From an uncultured delta proteobacterium (GTDB lineage: Bacteria; Desulfobacterota; Binatia; UBA9968): a stretch of 64,000 bases of DNA. Position numbers and translations under genes: made by a program. Shown here one piece after another: positions 1 to 16,142 of the stretch (position 1 is its first letter; the number at the start of each line of letters is the position of its first letter). Below the pieces are notes generated by a model. That model had not been told where the DNA came from, did no database searches, and saw nothing but the letters and a program-made list of their open reading frames with translations. The DNA lies in NCBI GenBank assembly GCA_963847445.1, contig CAWJZV010000048.1, positions 224,001 through 288,000 on the forward strand. The letters are read 5' to 3'.

Positions 1-214
1 TGCTGTGGGCGTCGGCGTCGTTGGGCAGTTCCTGAACCGCTTTGGTCAAATGTCCCACTGCGCCTTTGTAATCCTTCGCATCGATCGCTTTGCGCGCCGC
101 CACGACGTTGGGATTTTCCGTTTTCCCTTTCGGCTCGGGCAAATCGGCAAACGCAATCGTCTGCCATGCCAACAATCCGACCGCAACAACCATGCAGCGA
201 AACCAATACTTCAT
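1..214 (-). CDS. Exported TPR-like protein, N-terminal part (runs off window start)
   Basis: Manual translation from ATG at 214: MKYWFRCMVVAVGLLAWQTIAFA-DLPEPKGKTENPNVVAARKAIDAKDYKGAVGHLTKAVQELPNDADAH; signal peptide with AxA site, TPR-like helix pattern, GGAGG RBS. Not in the ORF track. Confidence 0.7.
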   Translation of the reverse strand, partial: MKYWFRCMVVAVGLLAWQTIAFADLPEPKGKTENPNVVAARKAIDAKDYKGAVGHLTKAVQELPNDADAHS

Positions 215-346
215 AGAACCTCCGTTAAGTGGTTATCGATATCTTCGGATGTTACCCGTGAGCAAGCTGTCCCGCAATACTCAATCATGCCGATCTCTAT
301 CACTAGTCTCGTTCGTTAAGAAGAATGCGGCATTTAGTTCGGACTA

Positions 347-488
347 TCCCCTCTTTGGAAAAGAGGGGCCAGGGGAGATTTTCTTGCTTCCGAACGGCTC
401 CATCGTCGCAGAACATAACCGATCTACTGCGAGAAAACGCCCCACACGAGAAACAAATCCCCCTTGATCCCCCTTTTCCAAACGGGGA
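347..488. repeat. Inverted pair of palindromic repeats (REP/MITE-like)
   Basis: TCCCCTCTTTGGAAAAGAGGGGCCAGGGGAGATTT (347-381) and its imperfect inverse AAATCCCCCTTGATCCCCCTTTTCCAAACGGGGA (455-488). Confidence 0.7.
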
Positions 489-601
489 ATCGGTCATCGT
501 TAGCGATTCGCTTCTTCAGCTCCGTGTCTAGCCAATAACCAATGGGTGATTTCACCTAGCGCAACTTGATCTAGCTTTGCCCGGATCTCGCAAGTCGGCG
601 G

Positions 602-1619
602 CTATGCTGCTTTCTCAGCTCCGCTCTGACTTCGCGCAACATCGTTAGATCGACCAAGCGATCCGACGGAATCTCCGCGCGTGATGCCGGACTCCTGGCG
701 AATCTTGTCGATGATCGATTTCAAAACCGGCTCTTCGATATCGCCGTCGGGGTTGAGCACTTGCGCAGGATCTTGTAGGTATCGACGGCGACTTTCTGGC
801 TCCAGGCCGAAATCTTTCTGTAAATAGGCGACCACGTCAGTTTCGTTTTTGACGATCGCTTCCATGCTGCGCAAGGTGGCGCGGATCATCGCCTTGACCT
901 GCTCGCGGCTGATCTTTGAATGACTCACCCGCGCCACCAATGCCACCCTGCAGGTCGCGCACGTCGTAAGTGTTGCCGAGATCGACGTAGCCCGCCAACG
1001 TCGCCATCGAAGTATACGGCGGCGTCAGAATCACCGCGTCGGTCGGCTTTGGCCGAGCAGCGCCGTATAACTATTCGCCGTGGTGTTGGTCGAGACATAA
1101 GCAACCTTTTCGTTGCCGTCAGGCCATCTTCATCACCGTCATGCGCCGCGTAGTGCGCCAAAGAACCGATACCGCTGACCGAGACGTTTTTGATCCGCGC
1201 CGGCGTCATGCCGGGCTGACCGATCAGGCTGAAACTCAAGCGCGTTTGAATGAAATGTAATCCGTGCGCAGCGGCAAGCCCTTCATGGCGGCGCGCAAAG
1301 ACACTCCGCCGGCCGCGGCGTAGTCGACCTCGCCCGCCAGAAGCGCCGTCACGCCGAGGGGCGGGCGCATGACGATGATCTCCAGATCGATGCCTTCCCG
1401 CGCGAACAACCCCTTCGCTTTGCCGAAATAATACGGCAACAACGTCAGCGCCTTGGCCGGCACCGTCAGCCGCACTTTTTCCAGCGGCTTCCCTTGTTGC
1501 GCGCCGACCTTGGGCGGCATCGCAAGCAAGAAAGCCAGCAACAACAATTTCACTGCGCCTTTTGTCCAACGGCAGGGCGCCCCGCCGGTCGCCCCTACTC
1601 TGACGCCGCCAATCATCAT
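602..1619 (-). CDS. ABC transporter substrate-binding protein, NMT1/SsuA-like (frameshifted)
   Basis: Pieces in several frames: signal peptide + EKVRLTVPAKALTLLPYYFGKAKGLFAREGIDLEII (1236-1619), ILTPPY (837-1034), C-terminal part (602-946). Alternative start GTG at 1553. Confidence 0.75.
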
Positions 1620-1792
1620 AATTGTGTTCCCGTCAATTCGAATGTCGTTACCAGAGCCACGCCACCGCCACCCCCAGGGCGAATCATGATTCGCCCCTAC
1701 GTCGGATTTCCTCTAGGGATCGTTTTTTGCGCCCTTTGCGCTCTTTGCGGTGATACATTCTGCGAAGTCCGAGTCTTCTCATTTTTTGTAAT

Positions 1793-3235
1793 CTATGTGC
1801 CCTTTGTGGTTAAATCTCTTTCTTCCCCGCCAGAGCTCGCGGCAAATTTCTTCGTGACTTTGTCTTTCAACTCCTTGCTCGCGCCCGAGACTTTGGGAAA
1901 CTCGTTGATCCATTCATAGGGCCGGCAGGCGTCGATGATGCCGCGCGACTGGAAGCCGCGCTCGCTCGGCGGGATGATCGGATCGATGGGATTGCTCCAG
2001 CAGCGGCGCAGGATGTCGATGTCTTTCGCCGGGTCGGTGCGCGTGCACAGCGCCCACAGGAGTTCGTTGCTGTCCCAGATATCGATATCGTCGTCGACCA
2101 CCATGACGTAGCGTGTCAGCAGCGCCGCGGCGCGGCATTGCGACGCGATCAACGCCGCTTGCCGGGCATGGCCGGGATAGCGTTGCTTGATCGACAAGGC
2201 GACCAGCAAGCGGGTTTGATGATAGGCGACGCTGCGCACGTCCGGCACGCCGGCCTTGTCGAGGTAGTTCCAGATATAAGCGGCGCGGATCAAATTATTT
2301 TCCGCCCCCGGCGCCGGCTTGAACGGCGGCGCGCCGGTCATGATCGGATCGTTGCGGTACATGAGCCGCTTCACTTTGAGCATCGGCTCCGAGCGCAGAC
2401 CGCCGGCGTAGTAACCGGTGAACTCGCCGAACGGTCCTTCGGGGATACTCGTGCCGGGCAACACTTCGCCCTCGATGACGATTTCCGAATAGGCCGGGAT
2501 CGGCAGGCCGGTGTGTTTGCCCAGGATCACTTCATAGGGTTCGCCGCGCACGCCGCCGGCATAGTCGTATTCGGACTCGCCCGCCGGGATTTCCATCTGG
2601 CCGAAGAACCACAGCAGCGGATCGGGACCGAAACTGATGGCCACGGGAAACGGCTGGCCCTTGTCGAAATATTTTTGCCGGTGAATATGGCCGTGATGGC
2701 CCGGCGAGATGTAGAGCGCCAGCGTATCTTTATCGTGCACCATGACGCGGTAACAGCCGACGTTGATCCAGCCTTCGTCGGGGTCGCGGCTGATGGTCGT
2801 GTCCATGGAGCCGATGTAGCGGCCGCCGTCGCCCTCATGCCACCACGGCACCGGCAAGGACAATAGATCTATATCTTTGCCTTCGAAAACATTTTCCAAC
2901 ACCGGCCCGCTATCGACGACCCGCGGCGGCAGCAAGGTCGGATGGTCGAGACGCTTCTTCCAGGCGTCGATGAACTGATCGCGCGTGTAATCCAGCGGCA
3001 GATGGTTGGTCAAGCATTGGCGCTTGAGCGTCGGATTGTGCACGCCGGTGAGCACGCGCCGCCCCGCCGGATAGTCTTTGATCTTGTCGAACAGCACCGC
3101 CGGCGGCGGATTGGACTGCGCCGCGACTTCGGCCACCGCGCCGATCTCCTGGTTCCAGTCGGCGCCCTCCACCACCCGCAACTCGCCAAACGAATCGACG
3201 CCGTCCAACCATCCGCGCAGATCACGATAATGCAT
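1793..3235 (-). CDS. UbiD-family (prFMN-dependent) decarboxylase
   Basis: MHYRDLRGWL start with GGAGG RBS; INVGCYRVMV, SEIVIEGEV, PEGPFGEFTGYY (ExPxxE), VVDDDIDI, WALCTRTDP, IIDACRP motifs. Confidence 0.93.
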   Translation of the reverse strand: MHYRDLRGWLDGVDSFGELRVVEGADWNQEIGAVAEVAAQSNPPPAVLFDKIKDYPAGRRVLTGVHNPTLKRQCLTNHLPLDYTRDQFIDAWKKRLDHPTLLPPRVVDSGPVLENVFEGKDIDLLSLPVPWWHEGDGGRYIGSMDTTISRDPDEGWINVGCYRVMVHDKDTLALYISPGHHGHIHRQKYFDKGQPFPVAISFGPDPLLWFFGQMEIPAGESEYDYAGGVRGEPYEVILGKHTGLPIPAYSEIVIEGEVLPGTSIPEGPFGEFTGYYAGGLRSEPMLKVKRLMYRNDPIMTGAPPFKPAPGAENNLIRAAYIWNYLDKAGVPDVRSVAYHQTRLLVALSIKQRYPGHARQAALIASQCRAAALLTRYVMVVDDDIDIWDSNELLWALCTRTDPAKDIDILRRCWSNPIDPIIPPSERGFQSRGIIDACRPYEWINEFPKVSGASKELKDKVTKKFAASSGGEERDLTTKGT

Positions 3236-3347
3236 TCCGCCTCCTTCGAACCGTGGCGATCTTAGAACGGACAATGCCTCGGCACAACCGTTCAATGTCT
3301 CAATCGAGCATGGTGAGTATCACTCGCGACTAGGCGAAGTGAAGATC

Positions 3348-3458
3348 CGTCAGGCCGGCGCGGACCGGCATCGCACGCATCATCCATCTGGATACCGTTT
3401 TCCAACGGTATGCCGGACGCTGTCGGCCACTTGGGTTCCGGCTTCCGCCGGAATGACG
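3348..3458 (-). repeat. Composite three-hairpin REP-like element (copy 1)
   Basis: Reverse complement aligns with 40952-41066, sharing the core GACAGCGTCCGxCATACCGTxGxAAAACGGTATCCAGA. Confidence 0.7.
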
Positions 3459-3616
3459 GATGGGGAAACGACTTCGAGTCGGAAGATTAACAATCCCTCT
3501 GTTTGGAGCGAAGCGTTGTTCAACTCCATACTTTCGCGCAGCGGGTTGTTTGTATATAGTTACGCCATCGATCCGGACCGTGCGCCGAAAAGCAAAACCA
3601 TCGGAGGACAATTTCC

Positions 3617-4900
3617 ATGTCGAAACCTTATCTAAATCGCACTGTCCTCGCGGCCAGCCTCGCCGTGGTTTGGTCCTGCGCAACGGCGACCGACAGTCCG
3701 CCGCAGCGCTACGCCGCCGGCACCGGCCCGGCCGACCAACTTCAGTTGCCCGCGCCATTCGACACGCCGTCGGTGCGCAACCAATCGAAAGTGATCGGCT
3801 GGCCCCAAGGCAGAACGCCCACGGCCGCGCCGGGCTTCGAAGTCAGCCTGTTCGCCGACAAACTCGCCAATCCGCGTCAGACCTATGTGCTGCCAAACAA
3901 AGACGTCCTCGTGGTGGAAAGCATTCGCGAGTGGCCCGGCCGCGCCGATCGGCCGGAAAAGTCGGCCAATCGCATCACGCTGTTCCGCGACACCGACAAC
4001 GACGGCAAGCCCGACTTGCGGGAAACCTTTCTCACGGATTTGAACATGCCCGAAGGCATGCTGCTGCTCGGCAATTGGTTCTATGTCGGCAACACCGACG
4101 CCGTGGTTCGCTATCCCTATCGCGCCGGACAGACGAAGATCGACGGCAAAGGCGAAAAGATTATCGATCTGCCGGCCGGCGGCCATCACACCCGCACGCT
4201 CAGCGCCGATCCGGCGGGCAAGAAAATTTACGTCGCCATCGGCTCCGCCTCCAACGTCGACGAAGAAAACGCTTGGGAAAAAGATCAACGGCGCGCCGGT
4301 ATTATCGAAATCAATCCCGACGGCAGCGGCATGCGGATATTCGCCAGAGGTCTGCGCAATCCCGTCGGCATGGACTGGGAACCGAGAACCAAGACTCTCT
4401 GGACCGTCGTCAATGAACGCGATTTACTCGGCGACGATCTCGTGCCGGACTATCTCACCAGCGTGAAAGACGGCGCGTTTTACGGCTGGCCCTACTCGTA
4501 CTTTGGCCCGATCGAAGACCCGCGCAAGAAAGGCCAACGCCCCGACCTCGTCGCCAAAGCGATCAAACCCGACTACGCCTTGGGCTCGCACACCGCGTCA
4601 CTCGGCTTGGCATTCTACAACGGCAAAGCATTTCCTCAACGCTATCAAGGCGGCGCGTTCATCGGCATGCACGGCTCGTGGAACCGCTCCAAGATGGTCG
4701 GCTACAAAGTCGCGTTCGTGCCGTTCGCCAACGGCAAACCCGCCGGACCCATCGAAGACATCCTCACCGGCTTCATCGCCGACGAGAGCAAGTTCGAAGC
4801 CTACGGCCGGCCGGTCGGCGTCACCGTCTTACCTGACGGCTCGCTGCTCGTCGCCGACGACAGCGGCGGCAAAGTCTGGCGCGTCACGGCAAAGAAATAA
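3617..4900 (+). CDS. L-sorbosone dehydrogenase / PQQ-dependent sugar dehydrogenase family beta-propeller protein, exported
   Basis: Signal peptide; GLRNPVGMDW, VNERDLLGDDLVPDYLT, YGWPYSY, GSWNRS, GRPVGV motifs; GGAGG RBS. Confidence 0.9.
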   Translation: MSKPYLNRTVLAASLAVVWSCATATDSPPQRYAAGTGPADQLQLPAPFDTPSVRNQSKVIGWPQGRTPTAAPGFEVSLFADKLANPRQTYVLPNKDVLVVESIREWPGRADRPEKSANRITLFRDTDNDGKPDLRETFLTDLNMPEGMLLLGNWFYVGNTDAVVRYPYRAGQTKIDGKGEKIIDLPAGGHHTRTLSADPAGKKIYVAIGSASNVDEENAWEKDQRRAGIIEINPDGSGMRIFARGLRNPVGMDWEPRTKTLWTVVNERDLLGDDLVPDYLTSVKDGAFYGWPYSYFGPIEDPRKKGQRPDLVAKAIKPDYALGSHTASLGLAFYNGKAFPQRYQGGAFIGMHGSWNRSKMVGYKVAFVPFANGKPAGPIEDILTGFIADESKFEAYGRPVGVTVLPDGSLLVADDSGGKVWRVTAKK

Positions 4901-5127
4901 CCAACGAGAAGAAGATGTTACAACACAGAGCGCACGGAGATCACAGAGCAAGTGCCGGTCGCGAGCAGCCCCGTTGGAAATCGAATAATTTACCGCAGAG
5001 TACGCGAAGGGCGCAAAGTTCCGAGCTCTTTGTAGCGTATGGCATACGCCCTTCCTCACAGCGAAGGATGAACTTTGGTTTCACCGCGAAGGGCACCAAG
5101 GTTCGGATAATTTGAAATCCGACCTTC

Positions 5128-5571
5128 GTGACCAACGTCAAAGCTGGCGCGCTCTACGGCTGGCCCTATTCGTATTTCGGCCAGAACGAAGATCCACGCA
5201 AAAAAGGCCAACGCCCCGACCTGGTCGCCAAACCGATCAATCCGGACTTCGCCCTAGGCGTCCATACCGCGCCGCTGCGGCTGGCATTCTACAACGGTAA
5301 ATCCTTCCCGCGCGCTACCAGGGCGGCGCCTTCGTCGGCCTGCATGGATGATGGAATAGATCGAGATTGGTCGGTTACAAGGTTGTTTTTGTGTCTTTCG
5401 CCAACGGTAAGCCAAGCGGCGCCATGGAAGACTTCCTCATCGGCTTCTTGCCCAACCCAAAAGCCTACGAAGTCCACGGCCGCCCGGTCGGCGTCGCCGT
5501 CTGGACCGACGGCTCGCTGCTCGTCCGCGACGACGGCAGCAATAAAGGCTGGCGTCAGCGTGAAGAAATAG
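5128..5571 (+). pseudogene. C-terminal fragment of a second sorbosone dehydrogenase-family gene
   Basis: YGWPYSYFGQNEDPRKKGQRPDLVAK and, after a frameshift, VGYKVVFVSFANGKP...GRPVGVAV match the last third of 3617-4900; no N-terminal part. Confidence 0.8.
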
Positions 5572-5874
5572 GCAGCGGGCAAGAGTCAACAGCTTGACGA
5601 AAATCCGGCAAAGTTCGAACTTTAAACTTCGTCATATTCCTTTCACGACTCGTTTCGTGGTCCAGAAGTTCATAGAATCCTGCTATCGTCATGCCGGCGA
5701 ATGCCGGCATCCATCTTCATCTTCGGTTCGCCGGCGATAAATCTGGATTCCGGCTGCGCGGGAATGACGGAAAAGGCTTTGCGGTTTTTGCCCGCAATCT
5801 TGAGACAACTCACTAGCGGCAGCAACCGCGATTCAACGATCTTCCCACCACTCCACTACTCCAACACTGCTTGC

Positions 5875-6624
5875 TCACGTCCTGCCCACTTCCAACAACT
5901 GCCCGGAGACATAATCGGAGTCGCTGGTGGCAAAAAACAGAAACGCCGGCGCGATCGCTTCCGGCGGCACCAACTCCCGTTCGCGCCGGGCGATGCCCAA
6001 CTGTTCGCGGCGGAACTTGGTCAGCTCCTCGGTCATGCGCGTGTCGGCCGCCGGCGAGATGCAGTTGACCTGGATGTTGTGCGACTTGAGTTCGTTGGCG
6101 GCATTTTTGGTCAAGGCGATGATACCGCCCTTGGCCGCCGCATAGTCGGCGACGCCGTAGGAGCCGCGCAATGCCGAAGGCGCGGCGAGATTGATGATCT
6201 TGCCTTTCTGCTGTTGCTTCATGATCGGGATCACCGCTTGGGTGCAATTGAACGTGCCCTTCAAGTGCACGCCCAAGGTCTCGTCCCAGCGTTCTTCGGT
6301 GATATTTTCCAGCGGTGCTAGTCGGAGAATGCCGGCGTTATTCACCAGCACATCGATACGCCCCCACTTGGCGAGCATCGTTTGCACCAGCTTGTCGATG
6401 TCGCCGCGGCGCGTCACGTCGGCGAGCATGGAGATACAATCGCCACCCAGCGCGGTGATATCCCGCTCGGCTCTTTCCAGCGTATCGCGATCCTGCACCG
6501 CCGTGATCGCCACCCGTGCCCCCTCCCTTGCAAACCTCAGCGCCACTGCCCGGCCGATGCCGCGGCTACCGCCGGTGACGATCGCCACTTGTCCGTCGAG
6601 TCTACCCATAAGAATATTGCGCAC
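5875..6624 (-). CDS. SDR family NAD(P)-dependent oxidoreductase
   Basis: TGGSRGIG, NNAG, YAAAK motifs; probable start at 6609. Confidence 0.93.
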   Translation of the reverse strand: MRNILMGRLDGQVAIVTGGSRGIGRAVALRFAREGARVAITAVQDRDTLERAERDITALGGDCISMLADVTRRGDIDKLVQTMLAKWGRIDVLVNNAGILRLAPLENITEERWDETLGVHLKGTFNCTQAVIPIMKQQQKGKIINLAAPSALRGSYGVADYAAAKGGIIALTKNAANELKSHNIQVNCISPAADTRMTEELTKFRREQLGIARRERELVPPEAIAPAFLFFATSDSDYVSGQLLEVGRT

Positions 6625-6719
6625 TCCTTTGCTGCTGGTGAAATTAGTCTAGAAGACGACAATTGCGCAAGCTCAGCGAGTTTGGTACGAAGCGCCATCG
6701 GATTGCATGAGGTGTCTTT

Positions 6720-7706
6720 ATGCCGCGACCCTGCGCATTAGCTATGACGATAGTCCTGTTAAGCGCGCTGTTCTTAGCGCCGGCCTCGGCGCAAATGAAA
6801 GTGCGGCTAAACTGGTCGGCCATCGCCGCCGGCCAGAGCGGCATCTGGATCGCCCATGACGAGGGACTTTTCAAGAAAAACGGCCTCGACGTCGAGCTGC
6901 TGCATATTCCGTCGAGCTCCCTGATCATTCAAACTATTCTTGCCGGCGAGGTTGCGATTTCCTATGTCGACGGGCGCAACACGATTCAGTCCAACCTAAC
7001 CGGTTCCGATATGGTGCTCATCGCCGGCGTGACCAATCGCTTTCCCTTCACTTTCATGGCGCGCCCGGAATTCAAGCGCGTCAGTGAATTGCGCGGCAAA
7101 CGCATCGGCGTCACCCGCGTCGGCTCCTCGACCCACACCGTGACGCTCTACGTGCTCAACCAGGCCGGACTCAAACCGGGCGACTACGAAATAGTTCCTT
7201 TGGGTGAAGTGCCGAATATCTTGATCGCCCTCGCCGCCGGCAGGATCGACGCCGGCCCGCTGTCGTCGCCAACGACCATCCGCGGGCGCAAGGCCGGCTT
7301 AGTCGAACTCGCGACTCCGGCGAAAGACGGTCCGGAATATGTTTCCATCGCCGTCGGCGCCACCCGCGCCTACATTCGCAGCAATCCGGAAATCGTCCGC
7401 CGCTTCATGCGCGCCTACGCCGAAGCCGTGCATCTTTTCAAATCCAACAAACCGATAGCGCTAAAAACATTGCAAAAATACACCCGCGTCACCGACCTGG
7501 AGATCCTCGAAGAAACCCATAAAGAATATCGCGAGTTGATCGAATCGGTCCCCTACCCGAGTCGCCGCGGCATCGAAACCATCCTCGCCGAGTTGGCCGC
7601 CAGCGATCCCAAAGCGCGCCAAGCCAAGCCGGATGATTTCGTCGACCGGCGATTCGTCGCGGAGCTAGAGCGAGACGGGTTCTTCAAGAAGCTGGGAGCA
7701 AAGTAG
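6720..7706 (+). CDS. ABC transporter substrate-binding protein, NMT1/SsuA-like
   Basis: Signal peptide; EGLFKKNGLDVEL, LRGKRIGVTRVGSST, DFVDRRFV. Confidence 0.88.
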   Translation: MPRPCALAMTIVLLSALFLAPASAQMKVRLNWSAIAAGQSGIWIAHDEGLFKKNGLDVELLHIPSSSLIIQTILAGEVAISYVDGRNTIQSNLTGSDMVLIAGVTNRFPFTFMARPEFKRVSELRGKRIGVTRVGSSTHTVTLYVLNQAGLKPGDYEIVPLGEVPNILIALAAGRIDAGPLSSPTTIRGRKAGLVELATPAKDGPEYVSIAVGATRAYIRSNPEIVRRFMRAYAEAVHLFKSNKPIALKTLQKYTRVTDLEILEETHKEYRELIESVPYPSRRGIETILAELAASDPKARQAKPDDFVDRRFVAELERDGFFKKLGAK

Positions 7707-7773
7707 TTAAACCGGCAACATATAAATGCCCGTCCCCAGCCCTGGGGGAAGCAAGACGGCGCCGCCTGGTAGC

Positions 7774-8859
7774 TTAGATGAGCTTTTTCTCAAGCAGGAA
7801 TCTGTAGATTACTTGCGCAACGAGACTATGTCCCTTTTCATTCCAATGAATGTCTACCGGAAAATAGAATGCTTCTCCGCGCAATCCTCGCGCTTTTAAC
7901 GTTGGAGTTAAATCGAGGCACAAAAGATTGCGCGCGCCGCAATACGCCGCAATTGTTTTATTGAGTCGGTTAACGCGTTCTTTAAAGACGTCAGTCGACT
8001 TTATTCGTTCCTTGGCGAGTTCCCAATACACTTCTTCTTTTTGTGGGAAGTAAAGCAGGATGAAGGTTGCGTTAGTGCGTTTGCTCTCTTGGTAAGCATC
8101 TTCAATCTGCCTTGCTATGCCAGCCCAGGCTGACGCAAATTCTTGATCTGCAATTGCGTACGGATCGCGCAACCGTCGATCCAGCAGCTTGAGACCGATC
8201 GTGTGTCGCCGGTCATTTGTCCCGCCTTTGTTAAGGGAGCGGAAGACGGTGTTAAAAATATTGTAGCTGGCCGAGTAACGCGCCATGAATCCTTTTGCGG
8301 TCATCCGTTGTTTGCGATTGACCGGCGGCGCTTCAAAACGTACCCCATCCCTCAGGTCATTGGAGAACAGCGCATAGAAAACAACCTTGGGACGCAACCG
8401 CACTCCATATTTTTGCAAAACTCGCGTGTACTGATGCGGGCCATGGCCGGGCACGCCAAAATTTATGATCTCGCGATTTGTCAGTCGCGCCAGCTGCGCC
8501 ACCCACGTCGCCTCTTGGTCAACGCCTGCGCCAAATGTGAACGAATCTCCAAAGGCGGCTCCCCAAGCAGGGCCGCCTAAGGTTCCGCCGCGAAACCCTG
8601 CGCTGGGAAAATTCAATCGGGTTTGTATCCGGAAGCTGAACTCCTCGCCGGGGAAATAGTAATCAGTTTGGGGCCGGATCATATTGCCAATTGGCGGATC
8701 CTTGACGTAGTAGGTGTCTCCTTCCATCAGAACAACCAGATTTCGCAATGGGCCGGGCAAGAGATGACTCGGCAAAAGATAGACGGTAAGATCGAAAGCG
8801 CCCAAGGTAAACAAGGTGCTCAACAGCACGAGCGCCGTTTTAGCGAGAAAGCTTTTCAC
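7774..8859 (-). CDS. SGNH/GDSL hydrolase-like (AlgX/AlgJ-like) membrane-anchored protein
   Basis: N-terminal TM; GDSFTFG (block I), NFGVPG, NDL, DIHWN (DxH); lower GC than neighbours. Confidence 0.85.
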   Translation of the reverse strand: MKSFLAKTALVLLSTLFTLGAFDLTVYLLPSHLLPGPLRNLVVLMEGDTYYVKDPPIGNMIRPQTDYYFPGEEFSFRIQTRLNFPSAGFRGGTLGGPAWGAAFGDSFTFGAGVDQEATWVAQLARLTNREIINFGVPGHGPHQYTRVLQKYGVRLRPKVVFYALFSNDLRDGVRFEAPPVNRKQRMTAKGFMARYSASYNIFNTVFRSLNKGGTNDRRHTIGLKLLDRRLRDPYAIADQEFASAWAGIARQIEDAYQESKRTNATFILLYFPQKEEVYWELAKERIKSTDVFKERVNRLNKTIAAYCGARNLLCLDLTPTLKARGLRGEAFYFPVDIHWNEKGHSLVAQVIYRFLLEKKLI

Positions 8860-9390
8860 GATTTCTTTACTTTGAAACTAAGACTTAATGCGAGAAATAC
8901 GGTGTCAACGCCGCAGCGAAATGTCCTAGCTGACGCCAGCGGTAATATGGCCACCGCAGCCAACCCGAAACACAAGAGAAATCGTCGCTAGGAAGAGCAT
9001 CCAAATCTGCCGATGCATATTCAATAATCATATACGCGAGAATTTTATGGCGCAAGCATTTCGTCGTTGGCCGCAGCTCCATCGCGGCGCATCTTGCATC
9101 CCGCTATTTCTTATATAGCCGGTCGAAATCTCCGATATCATCGAGCTCGTTGATAAAACGCAGAACGGCAAAATCTTCGGCCTTCGCTCCGTTGGCTCTC
9201 AGGTCTCGCCATGATCGTATTCAATCCCTCCGAGGTCGCGCTTGATACATCGCCGGCGGCGCCAGCACGGTGGTCTGCACGCGTTGGTTTCCATGGCGTG
9301 CGGTCGCCCCTCTCAGAGAGCAGACACAGGGATTTGCCCTTTGACGATGCGTTGAATCCAGAGTGGACCACTGCCGGTATCCCTTTCCGC

Positions 9391-9421
9391 TTGACTGCGC
9401 ATACCCATTCCCTGTTAAAGT
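9391..9421 (+). promoter_or_regulatory. Possible sigma-70 promoter of the GlcG-Rdh operon
   Basis: TTGACT, 19-bp spacer, TGn-TAAAGT extended -10, 40 nt upstream of ATG 9461; spacer is long. Confidence 0.35.
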
Positions 9422-9460
9422 AGCCGTAACAGCACAGCAGGAGGAGGTTCCCCGGCAACT

Positions 9461-9862
9461 ATGGCTATACCTGGAGAAAAAGCGATTCAGATGGTGCGCA
9501 ATGCGCATACCCAAGCGGCGCAGTTGGACATTGCCGTGACTGCGGTGGTGGTCGACCAGAGTGGTCGCATGATCGCGCTCGGGCGCATGGACAAAGCGCG
9601 GCCGATCACGGTAGAGATCGCCCTTAACAAAGGTTACACTGCGGCGAGCTTCCAGCAGCAGACCAAAGACTTGGCCGGCGTGGCCAACCAAGCCTGGTTT
9701 CAAAGTCTGGTGGTGTCGAGCAGCGGCAAAGTAATGCCGGGTGGCGGCGCCATACCGGTGGTCGAAGGCGGCAACGTCGTCGGCGCCATCGCAGTCTCGG
9801 GCGGCACCGACGATCAAGATCAAAAATGCGCCGAAGTGGCGCTGGCGGCTTATCAAGGATGA
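9461..9862 (+). CDS. GlcG/HbpS family (heme/cobalamin-binding) protein
   Basis: VVVDQSG, RMDKA, KGYTAA, GGAIP, GAIAVSGG, DQKCA motifs; GGAGGAGG RBS; no signal peptide. Confidence 0.9.
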   Translation: MAIPGEKAIQMVRNAHTQAAQLDIAVTAVVVDQSGRMIALGRMDKARPITVEIALNKGYTAASFQQQTKDLAGVANQAWFQSLVVSSSGKVMPGGGAIPVVEGGNVVGAIAVSGGTDDQDQKCAEVALAAYQG

Positions 9863-9963
9863 AGTGACAGTGATGCGAGACAGAGACCGCCCCGGCGCTT
9901 TCTTAACTTTCTTTCTCTGTCTCTATCTCATGGCTCTGTCTGACTAAACCCGGAGGGCAAACG

Positions 9964-11277
9964 ATGTCCAAAGTTGAAACTCCCAACCCAAACAACGGCA
10001 ACGGTAGCGGCGAGTTCCCGACGCCCTATCTCGGCCGCACCGTGCGCATCGTCGGCAAGTTTGAAAACGTCGACATGAATCAGTCGCCGCACCCGAAAAA
10101 TCAGCGCGGCGAACTGGGCAAGCCGTTGTTCAATTGGTATCACAACACGGTGTCCAAAGATCCACTGACCAGGGTATCGGCGCCAAACCATTTCGCCGAC
10201 CGCAGACATTTCTTGAGCACGGTGGTCAACCAGGCGGCCAAGGGCAAAATCAATCCGCAGAAAGTTCCGGTGAACGATCCCGCCGCCATGGCGCGCCATA
10301 TCAAAGCGGTAGCGCACTACATGGGCGCGGATATCGTCCGCATCGCCAAGGCCCATCCAAATTATCTTTATGCTGCCGGCGGCGGCCGCTATGTCCAAGA
10401 CGGCACGGCCAAGGACGATTACGCATCCCACACGCCGGAGCAGATGGCGCGCAAATTTCCCTACATCATCATGGCGACCACCGCGTGGGACTACAACAAA
10501 CTGCAAGCGCACCGCCATCTGATCGGCGACGCCGCCTATCACATCTCGCAAATCAAGGGCAACATGATCCTGAAAGCCCTTGAAGGTTACATCAAAGAAC
10601 TCGGCTACACGGCGCTGCGCGGCGTGGCGGTGCCCCAAGCGGTGGGCGTTGCCTCCGGCGTCGGCGAGTTAGGCCGTAACGGGCTGGTCATCAGCAAGGA
10701 ATACGGCGCCCGCGTGCATATGCCCGACCCGATCATGACCGATCTGCCGCTCGTGGGTGACGAGCCAATCGACATCGGCGTCGACGATTTCTGCAAAGTC
10801 TGCCGCAAGTGCGCCAACACCTGCCCGACCAATAGCATTCCAGTGGGCGACAAGGTCGTCCACAACGGCGTCGAGAAATACAAGATCAACTGGCTCACCT
10901 GCTACAAGCTGCGCCCCTACGTGCACGATCACTGGGGCAGCTGCCTGACCTGCGCCACGGTCTGTCCCTACACCAAGCCGAAAACCTGGTGGCACAACCT
11001 GGCGACTTCGTCATTGCACTATTGCCCCTACGTCCTGCGCCCGGTGCTGGTGAAGTTTCTCAAATGGGTCGATGACCGATTCTGGGGTTTGGTGCGTAAC
11101 GCGCGGGTGACTTGGCTGGGCTACGATTCCGGCGTCAAACCCGGCGAGCATGCCTGCACTGTCGCCGGCTGCAACGCGTCGCATGAGAAAGCCGGCGCCA
11201 AAGCGGTCGCCGGCAGCGTCGGCTACTATGCGCCGCTCAAGGAAAACACCAATCGATTCGTCAAGCGGGAACCGTAA
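9964..11277 (+). CDS. Reductive dehalogenase-like cobalamin / 2x[4Fe-4S] protein (no TAT signal)
   Basis: IKAVAHYMGADIV, YIKELGYTA, SGVGELGRNGLVISKEYGARV, TDLPL, CKVCRKCANTCP and C...CLTCATVCP motifs of the RdhA/QueG superfamily. Confidence 0.85.
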   Translation: MSKVETPNPNNGNGSGEFPTPYLGRTVRIVGKFENVDMNQSPHPKNQRGELGKPLFNWYHNTVSKDPLTRVSAPNHFADRRHFLSTVVNQAAKGKINPQKVPVNDPAAMARHIKAVAHYMGADIVRIAKAHPNYLYAAGGGRYVQDGTAKDDYASHTPEQMARKFPYIIMATTAWDYNKLQAHRHLIGDAAYHISQIKGNMILKALEGYIKELGYTALRGVAVPQAVGVASGVGELGRNGLVISKEYGARVHMPDPIMTDLPLVGDEPIDIGVDDFCKVCRKCANTCPTNSIPVGDKVVHNGVEKYKINWLTCYKLRPYVHDHWGSCLTCATVCPYTKPKTWWHNLATSSLHYCPYVLRPVLVKFLKWVDDRFWGLVRNARVTWLGYDSGVKPGEHACTVAGCNASHEKAGAKAVAGSVGYYAPLKENTNRFVKREP

Positions 11278-11870
11278 GTGGCTTTGAAGTTTCCCTGGTC
11301 CGGCAAGGACTCCCACAAGGACGATCCCTTCTGGGAGTTTTTCATCAATACGCCGCCCGCCGATCTCACTAATACGGTGACGGAACTGATCCGCAATGCA
11401 CCGGCGGGGAATATTTTCCCCAATAAAGCCGAGCTGCACACGCCCGAGATCACCTCCAGTCATGTCAAAGGCATGGCGCAGTACTTCGGCACGGAGCTGA
11501 TCGGCATCGCCAAGCTTGATGATCGTTCCCCTCGCCCGATGCGCCAGCGGGCAAGGACGAGGACAACGAATTTCCGTTCGCCATCCTGTGCGCCGTCCAT
11601 GCCGACTACGACCCGCGCCAAGCCAAAGGCATCGGCGGCCAGATGCCGGTGCAAAACGGCTTGTTCATCACTTTTGTCTTGAGTTCATGGATTCGCGAAT
11701 TGGGCTTTCGCGCCACAGTGGTGCGCGACGCCAACGTCGACGCGCTGGCGGCCAAAGCAGGCTTGGGAACGTTGAATGGCAATGGCCGGCTGGTCAGCCG
11801 CGAATTCGGCGCCCAGGTTTACGTCGCCGATGCGATCTACACCGATCTGCCGCTAGCCGCGGACGGCTAG
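11278..11870 (+). CDS. Rdh-like cobalamin-binding core lacking the Fe-S domain (one frameshift near 11530)
   Basis: GTG directly after upstream TAA; reconstructed ~197 aa with HVKGMAQYFGTELIGIAK, FPFAIL, WIRELGFRA, AGLGTLNGNGRLVSREFGAQV, TDLPLAADG-stop. Confidence 0.75.
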
Positions 11871-11981
11871 GCCTTCGGCCATTCCAGATTACAAATTTCA
11901 GATTTTCAAATTGCCGATCCGAACTCTGGAATATGTAATTTGGAATCTGGAATTAGATATTTCGAGCGAAGCGAGGACCCC

Positions 11982-12645
11982 GTGCCCTACATCATCACCG
12001 AACTTTGTACCAATGACGGCGCCTGCGTCGAAGTTTGTCCGGTAGCTTGCATCCACACTAAACCGGGCGCGCCGCAATTCTACGTCGACCCGGAAGTCTG
12101 CATCGACTGCGAGCAGTGCGAGATCGTCTGCCCGGTGGACGCGATATTCAAAGACGTGGATATTCCCGCCCAATACGCCTACGCCATCGAAGTGAACGCG
12201 GCATTCTTCCGGCAGAACAAAGCGGCCATCGGCCCGGTGCCCTTCGCTACCGCCTGGGCTATGATCGAGTCCGCCCAAGAGTACGCCAGCCTGGTCGGCA
12301 GCGCGATCACCGCCGTGGTGGTCGACGAGGCCGGCGCACCCATAGCGGTCGGCAAGATGGACAAGGCCGAAGCGAGAAGCGCCGAGTTGGCGTTCAACAA
12401 GGCCTACACCGCCGCCGCGTTTCACGTCTCAACTACTGAATTGGTGCCGCAAGCGCGCCAGGCCTGGCTACGCAGCCTGATGATTTCGCACCGCGGCAAG
12501 ATTTTGCCCATGGCCGGCGCCCTGCCGATCGTCAACGGCGTCACCATCGTCGGCGCCATCGGCATCGCCGGCGCCAGCCGTCCGGAACAAGATCGCCCTG
12601 TGCTGCCGCGCCGGCATGTCAGTGTGGGAAAACCACGGCCATTGA
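11982..12645 (+). CDS. Dicluster ferredoxin fused to GlcG/HbpS domain (frameshift near 12595)
   Basis: GTG with GAGGA RBS; CTNDGACVEVCP and CIDCEQCEIVCP, then VVVDEAG, KAYTAA, GAIGIAG, EQD; corrected end ALCCRAGMSVWENHGH-stop. Confidence 0.82.
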
Positions 12646-12708
12646 TAAACACTGCCGCGTTGATTTCGTAGGGGCAACTAGACGTTGCCCAGGGCAGGTT
12701 AAAAGACC

Positions 12709-13884
12709 ATGCCGCAAACCATCGACCAGAAATCGCTTTTCTCCGAAACCAATCTATTTAGCCAAGGCGTGCAGGCAGGTGAATTCACATTCCTCGCCCA
12801 AGATGGGCGCGGCCCGGATGGCACCGTCAGAGCAGCACTGTCCGCCGAACAAGAAGTACGCCAATGTCTTGTCAATCTCGACATGGGGCTGCGCGCATGC
12901 GGCCAATCATCGGCTGACTTGATAAGTCTCGCGGTATATCTTTCCGACTACGGCGATGCTGCCGCCGTGGCCAAGACGTTGCGGGATCGCTTCGGCAACG
13001 ATGCCCCAGCCGTAAATTTCGTCGGCGTCAACGGCCTCGACGGCGGCTGCCGCGTGCGTATGGATGCCATCGCCACCAGCAGCGAAGATCGCGAAACGTT
13101 GCACATCGCGGATCTGCCGCTGTCCATCGGCGCCGGTTGTCATGGCGTGCGCGTCGGCGCTTGGTTTTTTCTCTCTGGCACAGACGCCGCAAAAGGCGAC
13201 GGCCGTATCGCCACGCCGTCGTCGATTCAAAGCCAAACCACCGAAGTCCTCACGCGCATTGGCAAGATTCTCGCCAGACATAAACTCGGCCTCGGCAATC
13301 TCTGCCGCACCTTCATGTTCATGCCAGGCACCCAGCACCGTCCCGGCTACGGCGAGGCGCGCAAGAAAGTTTACCAAGGCGTATTCACCGAGGATGCTTA
13401 CCCGCCCAACTCCGGCATCTACATCCGCAGCCTCGGCGAAAACATTCTGCTGCGCTCCATGGCCATCGCCTACCGCGGCGAGCAGAGAATCGTAACAAGT
13501 CCCAAAGTGCGCCTGGCGCCCGGCTCATTTTCACAATCGGTGCGGGTTGGTAATTGGCTACTGCTCGCGGGCCAAGATGCCGTAACGTTCGACCGGGTGG
13601 TGGAATGTGAAGGCAGCCTCGCCGGCCAAACCGAAGCGACACTGCGCCACACCAAAGACATCGTCGAAGCCGCCGGCGGCACTCTCGACGACATCGTCAA
13701 GACCACTGTGTATTTGGTTGAAGGATCTAGTCGCGCAGAATTCACCGAAGCGTATCGCAGGTTCTTCGCCGCCCACAGCCGCAACAGCACCATGCCCGCT
13801 GGCTTAACCGTGGTCGTCGAAGAGCTATCGCCGCGCTGCTCCGTAGAGATCGATTCGGTAGCTTACTTGCCAACCCGAAATTAA
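12709..13884 (+). CDS. Rid (YjgF/YER057c/UK114) family protein with three tandem domains
   Basis: Three ~130-aa units: FSQGVQAGEFTFLAQD / CHGVRVGAWFFLSGTD / FSQSVRVGNWLLLAGQD, ending VRMDAIA / LRSMAIA / VEIDSVA. Confidence 0.82.
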   Translation: MPQTIDQKSLFSETNLFSQGVQAGEFTFLAQDGRGPDGTVRAALSAEQEVRQCLVNLDMGLRACGQSSADLISLAVYLSDYGDAAAVAKTLRDRFGNDAPAVNFVGVNGLDGGCRVRMDAIATSSEDRETLHIADLPLSIGAGCHGVRVGAWFFLSGTDAAKGDGRIATPSSIQSQTTEVLTRIGKILARHKLGLGNLCRTFMFMPGTQHRPGYGEARKKVYQGVFTEDAYPPNSGIYIRSLGENILLRSMAIAYRGEQRIVTSPKVRLAPGSFSQSVRVGNWLLLAGQDAVTFDRVVECEGSLAGQTEATLRHTKDIVEAAGGTLDDIVKTTVYLVEGSSRAEFTEAYRRFFAAHSRNSTMPAGLTVVVEELSPRCSVEIDSVAYLPTRN

Positions 13885-13903
13885 TCGGCGGCTAAAATAA
13901 CGG

Positions 13904-14275
13904 TTAGTCCAGCAGGATTAGAAATAGACCGACGATCACAACCACCGCGGCAAAGGAGGCGATCGCCGCCGCCGCCGGACCGAGGGGAAAAACGAACACA
14001 ACCAGGATGGTGCCGGCGCATAGCGCAATGAAGGCAGCGATGATCGCCTTCACCCACATCTCACCGGTAAGAACCCTGTCCGGCCGCAATTTACTTACCG
14101 TGCCGAGCCAATCTATCGGTAGCGATCCCGTTTGCTCAACCGCGCCGGCGCCTGGGTTGGCCGCTTGGGCTTTGCGCCGCTTCACCGCCCAGTGCCGCAA
14201 TAGCATCCAGACCATTAGTGCCAGCAGCACAACAAGAACCACTGAATACGATATTACCGCCTGCTCTAGACTCAT
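13904..14275 (-). CDS. Small hypothetical membrane protein (about 3 TM)
   Basis: 123-aa ORF with three hydrophobic stretches; no family recognised. Confidence 0.6.
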   Translation of the reverse strand: MSLEQAVISYSVVLVVLLALMVWMLLRHWAVKRRKAQAANPGAGAVEQTGSLPIDWLGTVSKLRPDRVLTGEMWVKAIIAAFIALCAGTILVVFVFPLGPAAAAIASFAAVVVIVGLFLILLD

Positions 14276-14458
14276 CGCGCTTGATCCATCTTCACAGAGT
14301 AGGTTCTGTGACCGTTTCCCTCACTGCGAATATTAAACGATCTGAACCCCAGTGTTCCAACGCCGGTGGCGGGATTTTGCCCTTTTGAGTTCATTTAACG
14401 ACAACGATTGTCAGCCTTGCCACCGACGGTTGAGCGCGCGAGCCAAGAACCTTGCCGC

Positions 14459-15466
14459 CTACTTAACTTCCCCTGGAAATAGCTTGGACGCATGGTCGCG
14501 GTTCACCGCCTGAATAAACGAGTTGTCGTAGAAGCGTTTCGGATCGGCGCCCTTGCCTCGACCGTCCGGCGCATCGTCAAGCACGACCCGGATCGCCGCT
14601 GGATCGACGGTCAGATCCTTGTTCCAAACGCGCAACCCTTGCTGGTAATTATCCGCGAGGATTTTGGCGTCGGTGACTTTGGAGTATTTGGATTCGAGCT
14701 TGCTGGCATACTCTTCGTCGTCGATGGCGCGTTTCACGCCATCCAACAGTCCCATCAAAAATGCCCTGATGGTGTTGGGATTTTTTTGCGCGAACTCGCG
14801 CGTCACCGCGGTGCCAGGGCCGATGATTTTCAATCCTTCTTTGTAAAAATCGACGATCACCGGATAGCCTTTTTGCTTGGCCATGTCGGATTGCGGCGGC
14901 GTGTTGATCATGGCGTCAGAGTTGCCCAGTGTAAACGTCGAAAACGCCTGCGCGGGTGTACCGTGAAACATCAACTTGATGTCCTTGGGAATCTCCATCC
15001 CGTACTTCCGTGCCGTCCCGCGCATGGCGATCTCGCCGAAAGCGCCGGGCGAGGTCGTCGCCACCGTCTTGCCGCGCAAGGCATCGAAGCTGGTGACGCC
15101 TTTCTGGCCGAATAGCATGAGCGAACTCTTGTCGACGCCGGCGGCGACATAAATAATATCCGCACCGGCGAGCGTCGCCATCATCGCCGCCGACCCGCCC
15201 TGGTAAATATCGATCTTGTTGGAGATCAATCCCTGCACCGCGACAGCGGCGCTGACCGCGGAAATGTTAACGCTCAATCCATATTTATTGAAGTACCCCG
15301 CCTCATGGGCGATCAAAAGCGGCATCGTCGTATGGGCGAACGCAGCCACGGCGATATCGAGACTCTTCTTTTCCGGTTTGCCCGTCTGCGCACCGGCATT
15401 GGCAATTAAAAAGGCCAGCAGCGCCGACCCCCAGACAATTCCCCGAAGTGAAAACCTCATTACCAT
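14459..15466 (-). CDS. ABC transporter substrate-binding protein, NMT1/SsuA-like
   Basis: Signal peptide; EAGYFNKYGL, LRGKTVATTSPG, FYDNSFI; AGGAGG RBS. Confidence 0.88.
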   Translation of the reverse strand: MVMRFSLRGIVWGSALLAFLIANAGAQTGKPEKKSLDIAVAAFAHTTMPLLIAHEAGYFNKYGLSVNISAVSAAVAVQGLISNKIDIYQGGSAAMMATLAGADIIYVAAGVDKSSLMLFGQKGVTSFDALRGKTVATTSPGAFGEIAMRGTARKYGMEIPKDIKLMFHGTPAQAFSTFTLGNSDAMINTPPQSDMAKQKGYPVIVDFYKEGLKIIGPGTAVTREFAQKNPNTIRAFLMGLLDGVKRAIDDEEYASKLESKYSKVTDAKILADNYQQGLRVWNKDLTVDPAAIRVVLDDAPDGRGKGADPKRFYDNSFIQAVNRDHASKLFPGEVK

Positions 15467-15544
15467 AAACCGTTCAACCTCCTGACTCCTGAGTCCTGAC
15501 TTCTACTCCTCACCCCTCACCCTTACTTTTTGGTTGCGGCTTGG

Positions 15545-15660
15545 TCATTTCGCTTCGGCCAATACCTGCCGCAACAGGGTAAAATCGATGACATCATCCG
15601 CCTTCACTTCTTTCCCCGTGGTCTGTTTGATCAAGCCGAGTTGGTTTTTAATCGCGCTAT
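15545..15660 (-). pseudogene. 3' remnant of another NMT1-like solute-binding protein gene
   Basis: Manual translation: DSAIKNQLGLIKQTTGKEVKADDVIDFTLLRQVLAEAK-stop, like the C-termini of the other SBPs (e.g. HDMALLREVQREM at 39438). Confidence 0.65.
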
Positions 15661-15669
15661 CCTTGCCCA

Positions 15670-16142
15670 AGCGAAAGAACCCGACGGGCCAGCATCGGTG
15701 CTGGGCTTCGCTCAATAACAAGGATGACCAACTCTATAAGATCAGCCGTGAATTATTCAAATCGCAAGCGGTGGTTTTTTTCGTCTCCGTTCGATGGGGG
15801 CAAACGAACAGCGTATATCAGCGCCTCTTCGAACGCATTAGCTGGATCGAGAACAGAGTTACCTCACTTGGAGAAAAGCCGATACCTCAGCTTAAGAAGC
15901 TTGAAGCGGGCATCGTCCTGTTCGGTCACAACTGGAACGACGAACAAGTTCTGAAGACTCAGCAGCAGAACTTCGAATGGTTCGGCTGGAAAACACCCGA
16001 GGCGCTTAGCTTCAACTGGCAATACACCGAAGATGCGGATGAGGAATCTCCCGAGTCCTACCGTGATGCGGTATCAGAATTCGGTGTTCTGCTACAGTTG
16101 GCGCTCCCACACAAGGCTGCATCCGTTAAGGTCCCCCGATAA
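15670..16142 (+). pseudogene. C-terminal part of a flavodoxin / NADPH-dependent FMN reductase-like protein
   Basis: KNPTGQHRCWASLNN, SQAVVFFVSVRWG, YQRLFERI, GIVLFGHNW; the upstream ORF portion is antisense SBP sequence, so the true N-terminus is missing. Confidence 0.6.

Follow-up and report, generated by a model that had tools for sequence, protein, structure and literature searches.

A separately encoded, core-only paralogue of an RdhA-like corrinoid enzyme, probably its non-catalytic partner, in a Binatia genome and its relatives

Among RdhA enzymes, PceA is exported by the Tat pathway and anchored by RdhB. Catabolic RdhAs carry a vestigial duplicate of their cobalamin-binding core that is itself unable to bind cobalamin. 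According to the article that describes it (PMC10463259), this vestigial domain packs on the true core in the manner of the second monomer of the PceA dimer, with the result that NpRdhA is monomeric. Desulfobacterota and Chloroflexota have been described as harbouring a ‘simplified cytosolic’ type of RdhA-like protein, about 395 aa long and without the vestigial domain (Microbiome 2025, PMC12219181). A full-text search of openly available articles returned neither a separately encoded core-only partner of an RdhA-like enzyme nor a gene cassette of the kind described here.

The window (the whole stretch of 64,000 nucleotides that was analysed, from an uncultured delta proteobacterium of the Binatia) contains such an arrangement. 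We refer to the larger protein as RdhL and to the smaller, core-only protein as RdhS. The features of the locus are as follows.

9461..9862, + strand: GlcG/HbpS-like gene, the first of the cassette (PF03928)
9964..11277, + strand: RdhL, 437 aa, an RdhA-like corrinoid/2x[4Fe-4S] enzyme (TIGR02486, Fer4 and PDB matches)
11275..11280, + strand: TAAGTG junction, where the RdhL stop abuts the RdhS GTG (translational coupling)
11278..11540, + strand: N-terminal part of RdhS, codons 1-87, in the frame of the GTG at 11278
11540..11541, + strand: frame-shifting gap of one base relative to the orthologues in L006, L007 and L009
11541..11870, + strand: C-terminal part of RdhS (frame +2), ending ...TDLPLAADG, with the TAG at 11868-11870
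11982..12645, + strand: ferredoxin-GlcG/HbpS-like fusion gene, with an extra base near 12593 and its C-terminus (12595-12645) in the +1 frame
12709..13884, + strand: triple RidA/L-PSP fusion gene, 391 aa, with three stretches of PF01042, found in close relatives only

RdhL scores 156.5 bits on TIGR02486, against a cut-off of 160.35, contains two ferredoxin-type cluster motifs (Fer4 domains), and matches PceA, NpRdhA and QueG in the PDB. No twin-arginine (Tat) motif was seen in the N-termini of RdhL and its relatives. Residue 251 is an invariant His, aligned with K488 of NpRdhA and with chain position 305 of PceA, and a C-terminal extension carries an invariant CxxxxC (C397 and C402) that lies in contact with RdhS in the complex model discussed below. 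Judged from these sequences, RdhL may not be a classical dehalogenase. The same genome (G000) also encodes a second RDH-like paralogue (G000:C16:40728-41297; compare L002 and L004), a 287-aa open frame on a different contig, 37-43% identical to RdhL, which may have been shortened by a frame break.

The order of the genes is conserved. In a scan that took one genome per species and gave 48 named loci, RdhS lies immediately 3' of RdhL in every case (48/48). The ferredoxin-GlcG gene, which the first-pass annotation had also noted after RdhS, comes next in 42 of the 48. Four of the remaining loci end at a contig end, and two (L029 and L032), whose contigs run on for more than 5 kb, keep RdhS without it (2/44 loci with a continuing contig). 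A same-strand GlcG gene precedes RdhL in 40/48 loci, directly in 39 and 2.2 kb away in L068; the triple RidA fusion gene occurs in 7/48. The GlcG/HbpS family is linked to corrinoid handling as the C-terminal domain of PduO. The ferredoxin of the fusion gene is of the FdxA type (NF045480, 66 bits), unlike the Fe–S domain of RdhA, and the ferredoxin-GlcG protein is likely the electron donor to RdhL. Positions 1-16000 of the window contain no match to an Rfam family, and hence none to a cobalamin riboswitch.

RdhS is a paralogue of the B12 core of RdhL, about 197 aa long, and is encoded in the window in two frames. Its span comprises two overlapping ORFs on the + strand, in different frames, at 11278-11682 and 11643-11870. 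Read from the GTG at 11278, frame 1 gives VALKFPW...IGIAKLDDRSPRP, after which homology ends; the same reading is also written VALKFPW...HVKGMAQYFGTELIGIAKLDDRSPRP. Frame 3, from about 11541, gives APAGKDEDNEFPFAILCAV...TDLPLAADG and then the TAG; with its inner block it reads APAGKDEDNEFPFAILCAVHADYDP...WIRELGFRA...TDLPLAADG, then stop. The N-terminal part covers a conserved N-terminal segment together with the opening helix and strand of a core of the RdhA type, and is 96% identical to residues 1-83 of the intact 197-aa orthologue in L006. A protein of this length had been proposed at the outset, after a single frame correction, and orthologues that are written in a single frame show the same protein; the one-base correction stands, while the site first suggested for it, near 11530, does not, alignment of the orthologues placing it at 11540/11541. 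The RdhL stop (TAA, 11275-11277) is directly contiguous with the GTG of RdhS, and the junction recurs in orthologues, either as TAAGTG again or as the overlapping TAGTG, which confirms the stop/start coupling noted earlier.

The relationship to RdhL is clear in each part of RdhS separately. Compared with the 437-aa RdhL, the first part shows 31% identity across 52 aa (E 1e-8); for the second, the figure is 36% across 105 aa (E 2e-15). In a profile–profile comparison (hhalign), RdhS 17-197 aligns to RdhL 67-273 with a probability of 99.8% and 30% identity. Every one of the sequence blocks that the first-pass annotation had quoted as parallels between the two proteins was found. RdhS terminates in TDLPLaaDG, and in RdhL the next element is PxDxG..FCxxCxxC, with the first CxxCxxC; the profile–profile alignment agrees with the original observation that RdhS stops exactly where the Fe–S domain would start. 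None of 35 RdhS members matches a Fer4 family, and no Pfam model matches any of these 35 or the copy in the window. TIGR02486 matches 34/35 members, all far under its curated cut-off of 160.35 bits. An intact orthologue scores 46.6 bits, over profile positions 119-196 only, and the second half of RdhS from the window 35.1 bits, over positions 118-196 (E 1.3e-8). On these scores, and in having no pair of [4Fe-4S] motifs C-terminal to the core, RdhS differs from the RdhA catalytic subunit.

The ADYDP, AGLG, V-H/Y-V and TDLPL motifs of the core are retained, and since several such motifs remain, RdhS may, to judge by sequence, still have a ligand pocket. Where RdhS is paired with NpRdhA K488 and with PceA chain position 305, its residue is H or Y (by alignment count). 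An insertion of about 20 residues that RdhL carries between its first two strands is absent, and a variable linker stands in its place. Missing too are five residues of the loop AHRHxIGDAAYH, invariant in RdhL: two of AHRH, plus AAY. In RdhA enzymes such as PceA and NpRdhA, the corresponding region holds the catalytic Tyr and its partner. The single-chain model of RdhS has a mean pLDDT of 68 (80-90 in the core), and Foldseek places it closest to NpRdhA, PceA and QueG (probability 1.00, E 2e-5 to 1e-3), followed by nitroreductases (E 0.036-0.052) and a B12 trafficking protein (5a4r; E 0.043, probability 0.87). By Foldseek on this model, and by hhalign, RdhS has the cobalamin-binding core fold of RdhA.

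RdhS belongs to a widespread family of short proteins. All of the orthologues fetched (19/19) are single ORFs of 187-205 aa with a GTG start and an end of the form ...TDLPLA(A/P)D(G), and intact homologues of about 190 aa beside Rdh-like genes, which the first-pass annotation had advised looking for, are thus what was found at these 19 loci. Of 60 genomes of relatives, 28 (the unpublished G005 among them) hold an orthologue-level match, at 58-93% identity, in every case with a large RDH-like match about 1 kb upstream of it on its own strand; the imperfect copies among the 28 are G019, with an internal TGA, G023, split over two contigs, and G031, ended by the contig end. The titles of the records behind the 48 loci name delta-proteobacteria/Thermodesulfobacteriota, Candidatus Binatia, Syntrophobacter(aceae), Chloroflexota/Dehalococcoidia and a few other bins. 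A collection of 5.8 billion proteins contains, in the length range 108-345 aa, 1186 clusters at E<=0.001. The best 120 of these 1186 are all 187-233 aa long, match over their full length, lack Pfam domains, and bear the name ‘hypothetical protein’, with ‘reductive dehalogenase’ as a rare alternative.

A profile search with no restriction on length returned 415 representatives at E<=0.001. Those at E<=1e-30 number 52, are all 93-292 aa long, and include no fusion with a catalytic core. Candidate fused forms were examined and rejected: for P0022, P0003, P0018 and P0019 the longer database proteins are out-of-frame read-throughs, and P0033 and P0049 are RdhS family members with low-complexity extensions. 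The longer homologues examined being of these kinds, close homologues do not continue into an Fe–S domain; the possibility that RdhS is simply a local truncation of a longer protein, which had been raised at the start, finds no counterpart among the 52 close representatives, none of which exceeds 292 aa.

RdhS is under purifying selection. The median pairwise dN/dS of the family is 0.148 (149 of 171 pairs with usable dS). For RdhL it is 0.095 over 130 shared pairs, in 125 of which RdhS has the higher value. Across a common set of 35 genomes, the alignment columns of RdhS average 59% identity and those of RdhL 81%. The copy in the window differs from its nearest intact orthologue (L006) by 20 synonymous and 10 non-synonymous substitutions, a dN/dS of 0.144; this is the usual family value and gives no indication of decay. 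These two ratios, together with the 19 intact orthologues, led us to reject the class of pseudogene or decaying duplicate for RdhS, and they uphold the earlier description of the protein as diverged rather than decayed.

We compared 78 core domains, cut with the RdhS profile, in an unrooted tree from a quick search. All of the short proteins (37/37) form one clade (SH-aLRT 99), which is sister to the cores of 14 RdhL-type proteins (98); the two together are supported at 97, and the remaining RDH-like cores fall outside the pair. In each of the NpRdhA-like proteins P0115 and P0129, the N-terminal domain falls next to the core of the same protein (100), and the two domains within P0058 pair together (94), as do those within P0074 (98). 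P0058, P0074, P0115 and P0129 thus have tandem RdhA-type cores, the members of each pair being mutually nearest relatives. From these groupings, core-only partners arose several times, by separate duplications. RdhS itself, as far as its sequences indicate, would represent one old duplication that later diversified alongside RdhL. The RdhS profile matches NpRdhA (4RAS) twice, in the extra N-terminal domain (76-219) and in the core (345-501).

Models of RdhL with RdhS, built from a 35-row alignment for each, gave an ipSAE of 0.88 in 3/3 runs, against 0.25 for the best of three controls, a score that may come from the model's memory of family dimers already solved and so speaks for likeness rather than for binding. 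The mark used for a complex is reached by 116/157 solved complexes and by 2/215 mismatched pairs. Partner pLDDT does not fall below 83, and the runs have 77% or more of their contacts in common. The modelled interface involves RdhS 13-70 and 119-142, and RdhL 66-119, 175-212 and 384-402. Of the RdhL residues in it, 43 can be mapped to RdhS, and 41 of these sit at equivalent positions, which makes the interface pseudo-twofold. Its 44 residues include 13 of the 21 invariant residues of RdhS (Fisher p 3.7e-5), and the invariant residues C397 and C402 of RdhL and H54 and H62 of RdhS are all in the modelled interface.

RdhS, then, is probably a non-catalytic partner of RdhL. We think it reasonably likely that it is a functional, structural partner, the unfused counterpart of a vestigial core, derived by a separate duplication, and that its frameshift in the window is an assembly error. 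Of the roles that the first-pass annotation had offered, that of a beta subunit fits best with an intact protein under purifying selection, coupled to RdhL at 48/48 loci, and with the modelled score relative to controls. Stop/start coupling would allow RdhS to be synthesized in step with RdhL, and in equimolar amounts. Each protein would then present the same two helical surfaces to the other, forming the pseudo-symmetric heterodimer of the model. Cobalamin and the Fe–S clusters would reside in RdhL only, and RdhS would be structural, corresponding by analogy to the vestigial core domain of the NpRdhA type. The complex model and the coupling together lead us to infer such a heterodimer, with catalysis confined to RdhL; that inference takes in the binding of the two proteins, a structural role for RdhS and its lack of cobalamin.

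The break in RdhS is peculiar to this assembly, all 19 fetched orthologous loci being in one frame. Relative to three orthologues (L006, L007 and L009), one base is missing at 11540/11541, within the linker that joins strands one and two of RdhS (window 11518-11575). The length of this linker varies between strains, and it is this variation that gives the orthologues their range of 187-205 aa. The best public sequencing run contains 0.50 of the sampled words, and contigs from four public runs proved to be those of relatives only, none of the own-strain allele being seen to span 11540. In run X1, depth is 3.46 in the bin 11534-11564, with no piece listed across the break. Two contigs (X2 record 14 and X3 record 21) do cross the linker, 23 bases short of the window's sequence, which corresponds to an in-frame allele 24 nt shorter. 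A programmed frameshift was considered and rejected, in that no orthologue needs one and no slippery motif was seen at 11535-11545.

Frame breaks are not confined to RdhS in this genome. A second lies 1.05 kb downstream, where the ferredoxin-GlcG gene has an additional base near 12593 and its conserved C-terminus, ALCCRAGMSVWENHGH, is consequently read in the +1 frame; this C-terminus is in frame in 14/14 complete orthologues. When 152 intact ORFs of the related genome G003 (54,953 aa) were placed on this genome, 62 adjacent frame switches were counted, a number that is not polarised: the reverse test gives 43 such events in G003, so that the 62 are not all attributable to G000. The essential ileS gene is in at least five pieces in different frames (G000:C7:241406-243806), and a paralogous match to the ileS family (G000:C18:21636-23865) is fragmented as well. 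rpoB and rpoC (contig C34) are intact and ileS is broken, which indicates that indel noise is uneven between contigs. In a search with TIGR00963, secA had no match in this genome. On the - strand of the window, a short-chain dehydrogenase gene (5850-6590) is intact, and G003 differs from it by one base at 5973 and at 6277; the G003 assembly, therefore, carries frame breaks too. Two regions of G003:C1, at about 102-114 kb and 128-135 kb, each have counterparts on two different G000 contigs (from among C42, C32 and C44), aligned at 90-93% identity. These doubled alignments suggest two strains, or contamination, in the G000 bin, for which contamination is 6.9%.

Broken or truncated copies of RdhS that are not due to a contig end are confined, among the 48 named loci, to records of the MFD series (4/15, against 0/33 of the others), which we presume to be long-read assemblies. 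We conclude, on indirect evidence, that the frame break is very probably an indel error of the assembly and not biology. Were RdhS instead genuinely frameshifted in this strain, it would be a recent pseudogene in a decaying operon. The missing base is, after all, present in the assembly, the next gene is also broken there, and the break falls within a linker prone to indels. We nonetheless judge this quite improbable, given a dN/dS against the nearest intact relative that matches the family median and shows no sign of relaxed selection, frame breaks across the genome that extend even to an essential gene, and the restriction of broken copies to MFD records.

Other accounts concern what an intact RdhS does. 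It might be a corrinoid carrier or chaperone, which holds B12 through its nitroreductase-like core, as CblC/MMACHC does, and loads or repairs RdhL. The RdhA core fold distantly resembles that of the B12 trafficking protein 5a4r, several core motifs are kept, the cassette holds two GlcG/HbpS-like genes, and a transient contact with RdhL would be compatible with the complex model too. Against this, loop segments invariant in RdhL are deleted from RdhS, it is most conserved on the surface predicted to touch RdhL, stop/start coupling suggests synthesis at 1:1, which better suits a subunit than a catalytic chaperone, and the fused analogue in NpRdhA is reported to be without cobalamin (PMC10463259). 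The B12 chaperone put forward in the first-pass annotation thus gains nothing specific beyond that one Foldseek match, at E 0.043, and with two loop segments deleted we hold it to be unlikely. Alternatively, RdhS and the ferredoxin-GlcG protein could make up a second, split RdhA-like enzyme, its Fe–S domain supplied in trans, as had also been proposed. RdhS does end exactly at the Fe–S boundary, and the ferredoxin fusion gene does follow in most loci; but residues conserved in the RdhL loop are absent from RdhS, the ferredoxin is of the FdxA type and not an RdhA Fe–S domain, L029 and L032 keep RdhS without it, and it is more simply seen as an electron donor to RdhL. We consider a split enzyme highly improbable. 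There is also a small chance, in our estimation, that RdhS is more than a scaffold: an obligate subunit that holds or hands over the corrinoid, or that completes the substrate channel of RdhL or a metal site between the subunits.

If the pairing of RdhL with RdhS is real, it would seem that RdhA cores depend on a dimer-like partner, and this partner is supplied in at least three ways—as the second subunit of a homodimer, as a fused duplicate and as an unfused duplicate—through independent duplications. Cytosolic RdhA-like enzymes from soil organisms labelled Desulfobacterota, Binatia and Chloroflexota, described without a vestigial core domain, would then have that domain supplied by a separate, coupled gene. 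Expression of such RdhL-type enzymes should include the small RdhS gene, and annotation of RdhS as ‘hypothetical’ or ‘reductive dehalogenase’ should end. Were RdhS to prove more than a scaffold, this widespread soil operon would provide the first B12 reductase of the RdhA type that is heteromeric and needs a truncated paralogue for its activity. The case also illustrates how indel noise in metagenome-assembled genomes can mimic a split gene.

Among known proteins, CblC/MMACHC and nitroreductase-like folds bear a distant likeness in fold to RdhS (5a4r, E 0.043) without a match in sequence, and their scores are far weaker than those of RdhA and QueG (E 2e-5 to 1e-3). RdhL fits the description of the ‘simplified cytosolic’ RdhA-like proteins by length, by the taxa in its record titles and in having no visible Tat motif, clade placement aside; the description given of them makes no mention of a separately encoded core-only partner (PMC12219181). 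PceA of Sulfurospirillum multivorans (4UQU) has the same core fold as RdhS, and its two-core dimer is, on the modelled interface and the published account (PMC10463259), the arrangement that RdhL and RdhS would imitate. The PceA homodimer consists of two complete, cobalamin-bearing subunits, whereas the partner of RdhL is a truncated paralogue, and PceA is Tat-exported, whereas no Tat motif was seen in the N-termini of RdhL.

The vestigial domain of the NpRdhA type (4RAS/6ZY1; also BhbA and JtRdhA) is, like RdhS, a duplicated B12 core minus the Fe–S domain. It packs, according to the same account (PMC10463259), like the second monomer of PceA, and RdhS is modelled on RdhL in a comparable, pseudo-twofold manner. 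The vestigial domain is fused at the N-terminus, whereas RdhS has an ORF of its own, 3' of RdhL, in all 48 loci. N-domains of the NpRdhA type group with their own cores and RdhS is sister to RdhL, a pattern that, in the unrooted tree, argues against common descent. And RdhL, unlike enzymes of the NpRdhA type, has no C-terminal reductase domain; its cassette has GlcG-like and ferredoxin genes instead.
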